Shown: positions 650 through 60,593 of the stretch, piece after piece
Position numbering within the stretch: the stretch's first letter is position 1
How the letters are laid out: the number at the start of each line of letters is the position of its first letter
NCBI GenBank assembly: GCA_977018835.1
Contig: OZ361261.1
Span: 186,001 to 250,000, forward strand
DNA: 64,000 nucleotides
Direction: 5' to 3'
DNA from: Minutocellus sp. GHC0000111
Taxonomy: Eukaryota
Program-made: the position numbers and the translations under genes
Notes under the pieces: generated by a model
What the model saw: the letters and a program-made list of their open reading frames with translations, nothing else
The model's database searches: none
Told to the model about the DNA's origin: nothing

Positions 650-3052
650 TTATTTACGAAACATCCCAAAAAGACCCCCATTGGACCTCGGCCATGCATT
701 GTCTGGTAATTTCTGGGCATTCGCTCCCACTCCTAGCACCTGCGCTGTCAACCTGCTTTTGGTGAGATTCTTATTCATCTTGCTTGCCAACCACCGACGG
801 ACTTCAAGATCTAAAGCCTTTCCTTTTGCCACTAGTTCGGCCTCATCGATCTCGGCTGCTCTAAACACATCATCCTGATCTTTTGTGACAGCTGCATCAA
901 CCACACGCATTGCCAACTTATATTTTGTCTTTTCATTGCGATCAAAAGCCCTGGGAAGTATTGCCAGCGGCGGAGGCATGGATTCATGCGACGACCCTGA
1001 CTTCAGCTTTCCAGATCGAGCCAATTCTATTACTATTTCGCTCATGAGCGGCCACTTATTCTTCTTTTTGCCCCCAGCGCTGCTGACAGTTGACAACTGC
1101 TCCGTCGTTGGTAGCGGTGGAGGCCGAAGAGCCGTCGGTAGCGGTGGCGCTCCTCCAACCATTCTCCTTGCTATGGCAACCGGCGATACTGCAATGGCAG
1201 ATATTGCGGTGCCGATAATGCCAGAACCTCCAGCGGTGCGCTGCCGCACGTTTCGGCCAGGGGATCGCGGTGGGGATGGCTCTCTTCGTCGGATGGTGCC
1301 ACCGGCAGGTCTACTGGTACCAGCAACCGCCGAATCAACACCACCAGAAGCAATCAATGGCACCGATGTTCCATTTAGCGCCCTTGCATCCGATTTTTGT
1401 AGCTGAGTCTCAAGGTGACATATTGTTCTTGCGTTGGTTGCTGCCAAAGCCTTCAAATCGGCAATCTCCTTCCGCAAATCTGATACTAAACGATTGTTTT
1501 CAGCTACCACAGTAGCAAGCTCCTCCTCAGCGGATGAATACGGTGCATTGATGGCCTTGAAATCATCTGCCACCTTCCTTGACCACCCCTTCAATTGAGA
1601 CAGATCAATACCGAGCTCGTCCCCCACATTCATCATCCGACGAACGGCAGGGCCTGCAACTCCAAGAAAAGACAGCTTCGTCGAAAAATTCATAATGTTG
1701 GTGGCCAGCACCTCCCGTACCAGCTGCCGTAGCCTCCCTCCAGCCTTGAAATCAGGCATTGTCATTGGATATAATTTGTCTGCAAACCGATCCAAAAGAG
1801 CCATGTCGTCAGGCAAAGTGCTGATGGCAATGAGCCGAGGAGGACGGTGGGACTTCCGAGGAGAGGGATGGCCAGCAAGAGACCTCATTCGCACATGTTG
1901 CATCGCCCGCCGAGATAGCACGTAGTGCCTGGTGTTATCAGCAGGAGCGTGGCCTGATCGTGCCGTGAGCTCTGGATGATTCACCGACGGATCTTCGTGA
2001 AGGTGGGTAGTGCCGCCGTATCGCATGCTTCGACCAGATATGCTGTCCCGTATTGAATCCGGCAGATCATCTCGCAAGGTTTCGGTGAGGGTCTTGGAAG
2101 TCCAGGAATCGCTTCGAGCCTGGCACATCGGTACAACAAAGGCCTGGAGAAAACCTATATTGCCAGAGGAGTTGCAGGTACGAGAGAGGCCACCATCGAC
2201 GCTCCAGTGGTCACCAAGGGCATCAAATACACAAGTCTCCCACCGGTCATAATCTGTACAGAAGGTAGTCGGCCTGGTCGTGCCATTCTTCAAGTCCTTC
2301 CAGTCAGCAGCAGCACAATTACCGACGGGATCATATGTCATGCCCTGGTAGTTGAGATATTTCACCTCCCCGGACCGGCCATCGGCGGCATATGTCAAGT
2401 TGAGAGCAAGGCGTCGCTGGTGCTTGTCGCCGAGCTTGCTGGTTTTCAGTAGCTTGCGATTGATGGTGACCATGTCGGGAACATCGTCGGCAAATGGACT
2501 GGTGCTGACACCGTCGTGTCCTTCAATAACACCAGCATCGGGGTTGAGGCGAACGATGCCGATCTTGCCGGGTACTTCGTCGACACCAGATGTGCCACGG
2601 ACGCTGTCTCTCTCCAGCTTCTTGACGAGCGCGCCCTTGGAGAGGGTGAACCAGGTCTCGTCGGTCCAGTCGACGTGGCGGCCGAACCGGTCCTTCAGGT
2701 ACTCCTTGATGAGGCCGAAGCCGTTGCCGACGCCGTCAGCCTTGAGGAGCTTGTCCCGGTTGTTCATGTACCTCGGAGGGTTCGTCGACATGTACTCGGC
2801 CCAAGAGCACATAATTGATTCGATGTCGCCGGGCGATGCGACGTCTTCGGGCGTCAAGTCGTCGACAAAGGGAAGACCGATATGCTGAAGATATGCATTG
2901 AATCGGGTCTTGTACGATGATAACTCGGGTGGTGCCCTTGGGACTGCCGTGCGGCGAAGGCCGGCGGTGGCGTTCGTGGCGGCGGTAGCAGCAGTAGTAG
3001 CGGCGGCCATGGTGTCAAAAGACTTCTGTTTTTTATTTTGGCTCGCAGCCAA
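650..3052 (-). mobile_element. Crypton-like tyrosine recombinase ORF (800 aa, intronless)
   Basis: YR catalytic motifs in the expected order: TYAADGRSGEV (R), DWKDLKNG (K), SGRSMRYGGTT (HxxR position, H replaced by R), ARSGH (H/W), NTRHYV (Y), followed by RSLAGHP..PP as in stramenopile Cryptons. A coiled coil and basic C-terminus follow. No RT/RNaseH seen nearby. Confidence 0.75.
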
Positions 3053-3122
3053 GATGCGCTTTCAGTTGGTGCTTGGCATCGCGGGGAAAATCTTGAAGTC
3101 TTCTCGCAGCAAACATGCGAGC

Positions 3123-23960: not shown

Positions 23961-24500
23961 ACCCGATGACCGGGAGATCAGAAGCCCTGATGACCGGGGG
24001 AAACGGGATATCAGGGGGTTCGTGTCTGAGATTTGTGACATTTTGTGACCCCTGATCCCTCCCTCAGGTGTGTACATTTCTGGCCCTGATGATTACGAAT
24101 GTTTGCAATGTTCGCCGGAACATTCGGAACATTTTTAATGTTGGTTTATTCCTACGATATCACGGCGCCACTTCCGTCGACCAGTGGACCGCCAGTCATG
24201 CCATTGGTAACGATGCATGATGTCTTCTCCGTATGCGAAGGAACCTTTTTGGATCCTTTTTGGATCCTTTTCTCCAGGAATCACGATGCACACATAATTC
24301 ATATCATAGAGCAACAAGTTCCCCATGAAGCGGCAGTAATAGTAAAATCCTCTTGGCCAGCTTTCTACATGGTTTTGGTGTCGAACAGGAGATCAGGGGC
24401 CCTGATGACCGGGAGAAAAGGGGAGATCAGGGTATCAAAAAGGATCAAAAAATGATCAAAATAGGATCATGAACGGATTATGAACGGATCATGACAGGTT
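23961..24500. repeat. Non-coding element with direct and inverted short repeats (probable non-autonomous TE remnant)
   Basis: About 44-bp imperfect direct repeat GGAGATCAG..GCCCTGATGACCGGG..GGGA.ATCAGGG at 23973-24016 and 24388-24432; inverted CCCCTGATCC near 24050; GATCAAAA/TTTTGGATC and TGAACGGAT repeats. Confidence 0.55.
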
Positions 24501-25090
24501 CTTCTGTTGTTCACCGATTCCAACATAATGAGGTATCAAATAAAAGCTCAAAGAGAGTACGGAACGATCGTGTCAGCGGCGGATGCCGTGCTGCTTGCTA
24601 TCGCAACTCTCAGAGGCAGCAAGATGAGGCTTTTTGGAGATTTGCAATTGCTCCCCAAGAATCACAATGGAGTGCCTCATGTGACATGTGGGTTGTCGTT
24701 ACCGGTCGGCACTGGCTAAAATGCCGGACAGAGAGACACAGACATACAGACCCGAATTTTGGTCCGTTGCACTGATTTTGGCAAAAACATTGTTACCATG
24801 ATGATCAGCCGACAGTGAGAACGGGCATAAAGATACGATGTGGACTATTAGCTAGCTAGTACCCAATTGGTATCTTCCGCTTCCGCTTGCTATGCCCGTG
24901 GGCAAATCCGCTGTGATTGGTCCAGGTAGCCGAAGAGAGAAGGCTCCGGGTGCCTTGTTCGGAGCTCAAAGATGAGGCTTGCTGAGCAACGAGATTTGAG
25001 CTAGATGCATCAATGACGCAAGTTGATAGACAAGGCACGATCAAGATCAAGAGGAAAGAGAGAGCAGAACGACAGGACGAACGAACTCAC

Positions 25091-25415
25091 TCTTCTTGGT
25101 AAAGCAGGAGCTGCATCGACTGAGAAGAGGATATCGAGTATCGCTCGATTCAAAGCAGGAGCTGCATCGACTGAGAAGAGGATATCGAGTATCGCTCGAT
25201 TCAAAAAAATAGATATTGGCTACTACATCTAGCTAGAAGCATTCTCTTCTTGGTAAAGCAGGAGCTGCATCGACTGAGAAGAGGATATCGAGTATCGCTC
25301 GATTCAAAAATCTTCTTGGTAAAGCAGGAGCTGCATCGACTGAGAAGAGGATATCGAGTATCGCTCGATTCAAAAAAATAGATATATTGGCTACTACATC
25401 TAGCTAGAAGCATTC
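25091..25415 (+). repeat. Array of four identical 51-bp units plus two approx. 40-bp linkers
   Basis: AAAGCAGGAGCTGCATCGACTGAGAAGAGGATATCGAGTATCGCTCGATTC at 25101, 25152, 25255 and 25321; linker ATATTGGCTACTACATCTAGCTAGAAGCATTC twice. Confidence 0.95.
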
Positions 25416-26793: not shown

Positions 26794-27122
26794 CCAACTG
26801 GAGGTATGCCCGGTTCTTTCTTGTGGCTTTGCTCATCATAAAGTAATTCGATTGAATAATGAAATTAATTCTCAAGCGAAATGCATACTAATAATCTATC
26901 CCTTCGTATTACTTCAATCTTACTTTCTGTGCATTTTCCTGTATGTGTGTATGTATGTATCTATTCTATGTGGTGTGTGTAAATTTCTAGGTTGCTTCTC
27001 TCGAAGCCAGCAAGGCTGATCGGATTCGTATGTATGAATTCAAAATACAGAATACAAAATGTGTGCAGTGCATAATCGAGTACATGAACGACACGAGCAT
27101 CTCTGCTTTGCGAGTGACATCC

Positions 27123-28667
27123 CTACTCGCTGAGCTTGCAGTCATCGGTGGTGACACTTTCAATGGGACTTGTTCGATCCAAACTGGAAACGCTATGCAT
27201 GCTAACGATTGATGGCAAGGTCACTGGTTTCTCATCCTGCTGCTGCTCCGATTGGGGATGATGAGTCCCCATGATCTGCTCGCCGATAATTCCGGATGAC
27301 GAGATAGACCAAGACAACGAACGAATCTTGGTTAACCCTGCGCAAAATTTGAATTGGAATGTAAGGGTAACAATAACCTCTTGAGTCAGTTGATCAATGA
27401 TATCAGCAAGAGCAATGGCAGTATCGTTGACGATTGCTATGCTATCGATGCCAACATTGTACGTGACATTGGGAGCTGGATACTTGGATTTGATCGAGTT
27501 GGCCATGCCCTCATCGAATTTGCATAGTGAAGCAATGTCATTCTCGGTATTCCGTCTGGGGGTGAGGGTGGACACCTCAAAGAGCCACTGGTTCTCGATA
27601 ACCTTGTCGAGCGAGGAAGGTCTGCATACTTCCATGGGATGATTCGTGTCATCGGTGGACGGAGGAGAAAGAGCCCTTGCGAGCATTTCGGTTCGAATGG
27701 CAAAGAACTCTTTGATGCAGGCACGCCGAGCCTGATCGAGCTTCTCTTTTTGCATCAATTCTTGATACTTGGCCTCGATGGTCAATAGCTCGTCGTTCCT
27801 GGCCTTCTTGCGAATCCTGTGGGTATAAAAGTGTTGTTTGATGATACGTGTAAGTCTTGCCATTCGTCTATCAAATGCACGCTTCTATCACAGCGTGAAT
27901 AAAGAATAAATTGAAGATACGAGGATACGCACCTGGTCGTTCGAGCGTGTTCTCTGTTGCGGGTCTTGGTCAGTTCCTTCCTCTCCTCGGCGGTGAGGTT
28001 GTTAGGGTTAGGGTTAAACTAACCCTAACCCTAACCCTAACCGCTTCTTTCCTCTCTGAGGCTTGCTGGTCAGGGCCGCCTTGATCTCCTTCTCACGGAC
28101 CGATGAAGATGTAGGTGATTTCGCCGGAGGAGGAAACACAGCTGCCATGCCCGCAATGGGAAGATGAGAAGGAGGAACAGGAGAATTAATCGTGGAATGG
28201 AGTGCCTTTGCGCCAGGAGAGACCAACACGCCAGAGATGTTTGTGTGTGCTGCACGCGTAGGATGATTGTAGATCGTCACTGCCGAGGTGGGGACGCTGG
28301 TCTCTTTGTGACGGAAATGGCGTGGAGCCAATAAGTGCGACGGTAGCATGGTCGAGGTGGCAGTTTGGAGCATCGGAGTAGGCCTGGATGTACTCGTAAT
28401 GTCTACCCCAGTGATGGGTATGGTGGTTGGGATCTGTAGGTTGGTCATACTACTCGTAGTACTCGTCGTGCCAAGCTGCTGAGCAGTGGTTGGAGTTGGT
28501 ACCGGAAGGACCGGCGTTCCAAAGGCCGACGGTGGGCTGTTCTTGATCTCAAGGAGAGCCTCAAGGGCCGATGCCGTATCCTGGGCAGAGACGGAGGCGA
28601 AGGCGACGGTGGCGGGAGCGGGAGCGGGAGCAGCGGCAGCCGCTCTGATGGGTAGTGGGCTCTGCAT
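27123..28667 (-). pseudogene. bZIP transcription factor disrupted by a telomeric-repeat insert
   Basis: SKPQRGKKR-[insert]-NLTAEERKELTKTRNREHARTT, intron 27817-27932, then RIRKKARNDELL. The insert creates an in-frame TAA. Confidence 0.85.
28001..28042. repeat. Inverted (head-to-head) interstitial telomeric repeat
   Basis: GTTAGGGTTAGGGTTA-AAC-TAACCCTAACCCTAACCCTAACC. Confidence 0.95.
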
Positions 28668-60393: not shown

Positions 60394-60593
60394 NNNNNNN
60401 NNNNNNNNNNNNNNNNNNNNNNNNNNNNNNNNNNNNNNNNNNNNNNNNNNNNNNNNNNNNNNNNNNNNNNNNNNNNNNNNNNNNNNNNNNNNNNNNNNNN
60501 NNNNNNNNNNNNNNNNNNNNNNNNNNNNNNNNNNNNNNNNNNNNNNNNNNNNNNNNNNNNNNNNNNNNNNNNNNNNNNNNNNNNNNNNNNNNN
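60394..60593. other. Assembly gap (200 N)
   Basis: Run of N. Confidence 1.

Follow-up and report, generated by a model that had tools for sequence, protein, structure and literature searches.

A bZIP-like exon split by facing telomere repeats

The window (the whole 64,000-nucleotide stretch of DNA analysed here) holds a two-exon gene whose first exon is interrupted by two short telomeric arms facing each other across two other bases (Table 1). All organism-named matches to the acetylglutamate kinase encoded in the window are diatoms, the nearest named cluster being that of Arcocellulus cornucervis at 91%, followed by Odontella aurita at 81%. We take the family of Arcocellulus to be Cymatosiraceae, and hence place the host there.

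Table 1. Coordinates of the interrupted gene and of the parts of its insert in the window.
Feature	Position	Strand	Remarks
Exon 1, bZIP-like gene	27933..28667	-	ATG at 28667; insert just upstream of the basic region (translation)
Native intron	27817..27932	-	116 nt, GT-AG, ends GTGCGT..CACAG; skipped by RNA-run contig X6
Exon 2	27123..27816	-	End of basic region, weak zipper, C-terminal domain; intact in the window; 99% identity to P0001; stop at 27123
Left telomeric arm	28003..28016	+	TAGGGTTAGGGTTA, 14 nt, G-rich on plus strand; register continues flank GT 28001-28002; left boundary on the simplest reading
Linker AA	28017..28018	.	Two non-telomeric bases where the arms meet
Right telomeric arm	28019..28040	-	CTAACCCTAACCCTAACCCTAA, 22 nt, G-rich on minus strand (TTAGGG x3, TTAG); register continues flank GG 28041-28042

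Read directly, positions 27995-28047 of the plus strand consist of GAGGTTGT, the left arm, AA, the right arm and CCGCTTC, just as the first-pass annotation had described in reporting head-to-head telomere repeats within a coding exon. All three double-hexamer matches in the 64-kb window fall at the insert, against an expectation of 0.06, and the head-to-head TTAGGG/CCCTAA pattern occurs once in the window and in none of 100 shuffles. As a perfect inverted repeat of 16 bp, the arms make a hairpin with a 3-nt loop (fold z = -7.96). In both, the G-rich strand starts at the flank and runs 3' toward the centre, which confirms the polarity claimed at first pass. The flanking GG and GT are in register with the repeats provided that the corresponding codons of the empty allele, known by its length and its protein, are CGG and GAC. 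No direct repeat adjoins the insert, and no YAG lies beside its C-rich arm. A telomerase-RNA-derived piece beside the repeats is likewise absent, only two bases of the insert being non-telomeric.

The gene had been annotated as a bZIP. The N-x7-R motif of the basic region is present (N221..R229), with R229 invariant and N221 conserved in at least 90% of 32 aligned sequences, and protein P0023 carries the UniRef name 'BZIP domain-containing'. Protein P0001 has no Pfam bZIP match; P0026 matches bZIP_2 weakly, at E 0.043. A PDB search with P0001 gave no match, and the sole PDB match for the host-gene family, TGA7 at E 8.9, is weak. Since the motif is present and the Pfam bZIP match absent, we term the gene bZIP-like.

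The insert is a net 37-nt frameshift. The altered frame reads KKR-LGLGLGLV-stop, with the stop nine codons in, at a premature TAA (28016-28014), and gives a product of 217 aa, where full-length alleles encode 459-463 aa. In-frame splices from the first GTTAG donor within the insert would cost 8 codons with a GAG acceptor, 17 with the first CAG, or 24 with the native acceptor; later donors would retain telomere-coded residues and remove the same downstream codons. The allele is therefore likely null, or encodes a protein without the DNA-binding (basic) region, as judged from the predicted reading frames. Carriers, whether heterozygous or clonal, probably tolerate it.

Elsewhere in the window, an intronless ORF of about 800 aa (650-3061, minus strand) looks by eye like the protein of a tyrosine-recombinase transposon, with no Pfam match at E 0.01. 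Facing 11-nt tandem arrays at 24240-24494 (GGATCCTTTTT x3 and AAAAAGGATCA x3) resemble the ends of small mobile elements. The intergenic region 25090-25415 contains nested near-perfect tandem duplications with periods of 51 and 66 nt, reflecting either recent duplication or assembly stutter.

Insert-bearing and insert-free alleles

Eight of the 21 listed runs (X1, X4, X5, X6, X8, X11, X12 and X13) were compared with the window, six runs of small share being left out. Insert-free alleles, raised in the first-pass annotation as something to look for, were found in contigs of X1, X4, X5 and X6, four of four. In each run a single contig spans 27991 to 28050 and carries 21 letters there against 58 in the window; the shortfall of exactly 37 agrees with the net length first proposed. 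These contigs, from three studies, have depths of 515, 419, 27 and 16 and were compared by length. Those of X1, X4 and X5 show five differences from the window, and X6 carries the window's bases at 27455 and 28469. At 27538 the window has T and all four runs have C (Asp versus Gly), a private variant or a consensus error. A 12-nt length polymorphism lies in the Ala-Pro repeat of the gene at 28612-28631, the 12 nt being missing from X5 and X6.

At the protein level, KKR-D-NL is found in the relative P0002 and in each of the seven proteins of the same cluster that cover the site without the insert, and ENA contigs of 658,505 and 5,317,691 nt are insert-free. The junction residue among 65 homologues with the motif is D in 30, M in 24, E in 7, K in 3, L in 1 (the insert allele itself) and N in none. 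The first-pass proposal that removal of 28004-28040 restores KKR followed by Asn is contradicted by these sequences. Because the junction residue of the empty alleles is Asp and not Asn, at least one base was likely lost. The flanks are indeed contiguous parts of one gene, as the four runs and the proteins indicate, and of the little or no loss first suggested, no loss at all probably does not hold.

The Asp codon of the empty alleles moves the left boundary, most simply, to 28003, so that 38 nt (28003-28040) would have come in and one base gone out if the codon was GAC. With GAT instead, three bases would have been lost and the left seed would disappear; Asp codons in the host gene are GAT 11 times and GAC 6 times. 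The junction change consists of an Asp codon altered exactly there plus a 2-base linker, a change of the end-joining type, with a loss of 1 or 3 nt according to the codon assumed.

The search for contigs that support the insert covered 27000-28011 and matched one run of four, X12. Its 509-nt contig (mean depth 15) matches 27571-28011 with no differences and extends for 68 further, unseen letters. The match takes in the left junction, nine letters of the insert and the window's alleles at 27911-27912; the right junction lies outside it. X8, X11 and X13 gave no contig and are evidence neither way. A separate ENA record, a contig of 761,871 nt, encodes the exact truncated protein (P0003, ending KKRLGLGLGLV). 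The exon-2 product listed for a contig of that same length, P0011, is one residue off the window (G versus D), and the window's own exon-2 product has no entry in the protein collection; apparently, therefore, two records carry the insert. X12 and the ENA record may share their source sample with the window, and a widespread allele is not implied.

The empty alleles that are 37 nt shorter, the X12 match and the second truncated record together identify an insertion polymorphism and not an assembler join. Both arms are perfect, and the insert-free protein P0007 has the window's T and V residues, from which it follows that the event is young. We conclude that the insert is real, recent and polymorphic, carried by one lineage and missing from others.

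Facing telomere tracts in metagenomes

One of 64 parts of a metagenome collection was scanned, yielding 124 loci (L012-L135) with 136 tracts; about 8,100 such stretches are estimated overall. Removal of tracts with a flank under 40 nt or with redundant flanks left 110, of which 90 come from contigs with GC of at least 57% and 20 are low-GC. The arms join without a linker in 37 of the 110 and with a 2-base linker in 9. Unselected two-arm tracts in the metagenome loci run G-then-C in 23 cases and C-then-G in none, alongside 190 tracts of single orientation; the polarity is that of the diatom insert. Variant units are mirrored between arms in 6 of 51 (null 3.3; 300 of 2000 shuffles reach 6), and since variants are unmirrored, the arms of the metagenome tracts were made independently.

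On the high-GC contigs, which belong to marine eukaryotes, tracts have a median length of 97 nt, often occur several to a contig, and show target duplications and CCCTAACCAG ends like those of spliceosomal introns. An adjoining direct repeat of at least 8 nt accompanies 34 of the 90 high-GC tracts (null mean 1.2, maximum 5), and a YAG stands beside an arm in 68 of 90 (control 23). The upstream flank recurs after the acceptor in 25 of the 90, the copy starting with GT or GC in 18 of these 25. Removal of the predicted intron keeps the frame inferred from GC3 in 18 of 30 testable tracts (p = 0.0025 versus one third). Low-GC tracts show no enrichment, either of duplications (2 of 20; null mean 0.43, maximum 2) or of acceptors (11 of 20; control 7.5). 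None of 37 tract/strand pairs (74 segments) has the same Pfam family on both flanks, so domain continuity gives no demonstration of splicing there; domains abut three tracts, in L089, L093 and L133. An Atlas search with the high-GC loci returned no useful taxon, and our guess is that they are haptophytes. In the titles and abstract openings covered by a literature search, outside which most subscription journals lay, no named class of telomere-repeat introns was found.

Viral contigs carry similar structures. Six of 4.4-4.7 kb (L004, L005, L006, L009, L010 and L011) have long head-to-head telomere-repeat arrays adjoining their main ORFs, and the ORFs tested gave Pfam matches to Viral_Rep (L005, L009) and to S-domain Viral_coat (L011), a pairing that we take to be crucivirus-like. 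Telomere-repeat palindromes lie at the ends of larger viral contigs (L003:8-37, L007:20-49, L008:5001-5030); of these contigs, L003 and L008 have genes for major capsid proteins of the virophage type. Capture from such viruses was considered as a source of the diatom insert and rejected, the window's centre occurring in none of the nine viral head-to-head loci. The 15-nt centre has 21 viral matches, on contigs other than those of these nine loci.

Origin of the insert and its relation to known systems

The insert probably arose by a double-strand break in exon 1, extension of both ends by telomerase, and end joining. The first-pass annotation had proposed extension at both ends followed by ligation; the polarity of the arms and the empty alleles support it, and the action of telomerase itself is what we infer. 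A near-blunt break would have separated the Arg codon from the Asp codon. Of the two ends, one, offering a GG-3' seed, would have gained 22 nt; the other would have lost one base and gained 14 nt from a GT-3' seed. The resulting tracts, too short for protected telomeres, would then have been ligated with two untemplated bases. The one-base loss and the 2-nt seeds are suggested by parsimony, with GAC and CGG assumed.

Published background bears on this mechanism in both directions. TTAGGG telomeres are reported from the diatoms T. pseudonana and P. tricornutum, species other than the host (PMC3622300, PMC8329260). Short products of telomerase are expected, in a human study (10.1101/2022.10.31.514589), to end up as interstitial insertions through end joining, and a second telomerase at the other break end has been proposed for 3 of 41 vertebrate TERC-ITS loci (PMC8537989). 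Counting against it, N. inconspicua has a variant 12-mer telomere unit (PMC8329260), an assay of telomerase activity in P. tricornutum failed (PMC3622300), and human telomerase is said to be inactive on blunt ends (10.1101/2022.10.31.514589).

An unlikely but workable alternative is that telomerase added repeats on one side only and fold-back synthesis made the second arm, or that a polymerase copied or captured a ready-made inverted telomeric fragment. The perfect hairpin suits both versions. For fold-back, the flank beside the shorter arm would give 2 nt of microhomology, and perfect repeats in a single diatom insert are compatible with the copying of one arm. Templated insertion at breaks occurs. 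Against fold-back, variants are unmirrored and arm lengths anticorrelated (rho -0.52) in the 90 high-GC metagenome tracts, which come from organisms other than the diatom. Capture should produce either polarity, contrary to the 23-to-0 count, and the exact 15-nt centre was found in none of 135 loci, viral hairpins included.

We regard as improbable an artefact of library or assembly, in which a chimera or amplification product was retained by the assembler. Such an origin would be in keeping with support that possibly all comes from one sample and that consists of contigs and not raw reads, with a window base at 27538 that none of X1, X4, X5 and X6 shares, and with a scaffolded window (200 N at 60394-60593). 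It is opposed by the X12 match across the left junction, by the presence of the insert on two separate records, and by flanks that come together again about one net base short, a result not expected from random ligation.

Very little probability attaches to the option, offered in the first-pass annotation, that the site undergoes programmed or recurrent breakage and that the assembler joined the two capped products. Programmed breakage with telomere healing is known in nematodes (PMC13060919). At the diatom site, the X12 match extends over the left junction, and two deep contigs (12,468 and 5,554 nt, at depths 515 and 419) run through, although contigs may drop minor forms; a contig from the RNA run is also unbroken there. 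No loose contig ends were seen there, though rows at the repeat fell outside the comparison. In addition, TTAGGG and CCCTAA ends could not be merged by overlap, and the tracts are just 14 and 22 nt long. Equally hard to credit is a functional newborn intron that leaves the gene intact: the sense strand does offer four GTTAG donors and CTAAC branch-like motifs, and inserts of this type look like introns elsewhere, but the duplication and the YAG beside the C-rich arm are both absent, and each in-frame splice considered above would lose codons. Carrier RNA did not turn up among the data.

Human 2q13 is an example of a fusion ITS. ITS left by end-to-end chromosome fusion share the head-to-head (TTAGGG)n(CCCTAA)n signature (PMC8537989), whereas the flanks of the diatom insert are two halves of one exon, meeting at adjacent codons, and not two subtelomeres. 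Closer are the short ITS at double-strand breaks of primates, rodents and the horse (PMC7215372), which share a few exact internal repeats, an empty allele in the same species and a small deletion at the site; in the horse, deletion is reported at 30% of 66 loci and in-register bases at 77.5%, together with insertion polymorphism. Flank bases are in register there, while those of the diatom depend on the assumed CGG and GAC codons. The diatom insert differs also in its two facing arms, its lack of any other rearrangement, its coding exon and its host, a diatom. The horse head-to-head case is accompanied by an inversion and duplications (PMC7215372), which the diatom insert lacks.

Mouse lemur and Xenopus have head-to-head TERC-ITS loci (PMC8537989) that share the two facing tracts and the second-telomerase explanation; by comparison, the 2-nt linker of the diatom insert leaves no room for a retrotranscribed piece of telomerase RNA, and the diatom locus is polymorphic for an insert of very recent origin. 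In cancer, two-sided telomere insertions and fused neotelomeres (10.1101/157560; PMC11293586) similarly have repeats on both sides of a break and sometimes disrupt exons. These are somatic, rare and often ALT-linked, in contrast to an event in a wild or cultured alga with the original ends rejoined. Of cancer telomere insertions 98% are one-sided (10.1101/157560); fused neotelomeres are a defined cancer class, in a study where only about 10% of sites showed a seed match (PMC11293586). The short-ITS class and the two-telomerase model are thus already known; what is new here is an insert that is exonic, two-armed and nearly scar-free, in a diatom.

Intron gain by break repair or by AGGT tandem duplication (PMC3443670) resembles the metagenome look-alikes in placing filler between direct repeats that supply splice sites. 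The filler here is telomeric ('telomer' occurs 0 times in that review), and the diatom insert has neither duplication nor acceptor; for this reason it has the look of a fresh event from which no intron arose. We tentatively suggest, as a real possibility short of a probable one, that marine algal telomerase routinely extends both ends of internal breaks before they are rejoined, that this is a major unrecognised source of spliceosomal introns, and that the diatom insert is the same reaction, fresh and at a blunt break. Under this proposal either strand would find its GTTAG donor and its CTAAC branch point in the facing arms, and the acceptor would come from an AG|G duplicated by a staggered break. 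The blunt break in the diatom would have made no acceptor, and the gene would have been knocked out.

As one mutation in one strain, the insert carries modest weight. It is an unusually clean natural record in which both ends of one break were given telomere repeats and rejoined, with empty alleles still extant, and would point indirectly to telomerase acting on internal breaks in diatoms, a group in which an activity assay failed (PMC3622300). It connects a known type of repair scar with the problem of intron origin. Other marine eukaryotes have this architecture in abundance and with intron-like features; there it may make introns at scale, and this raises the interest of the diatom insert.
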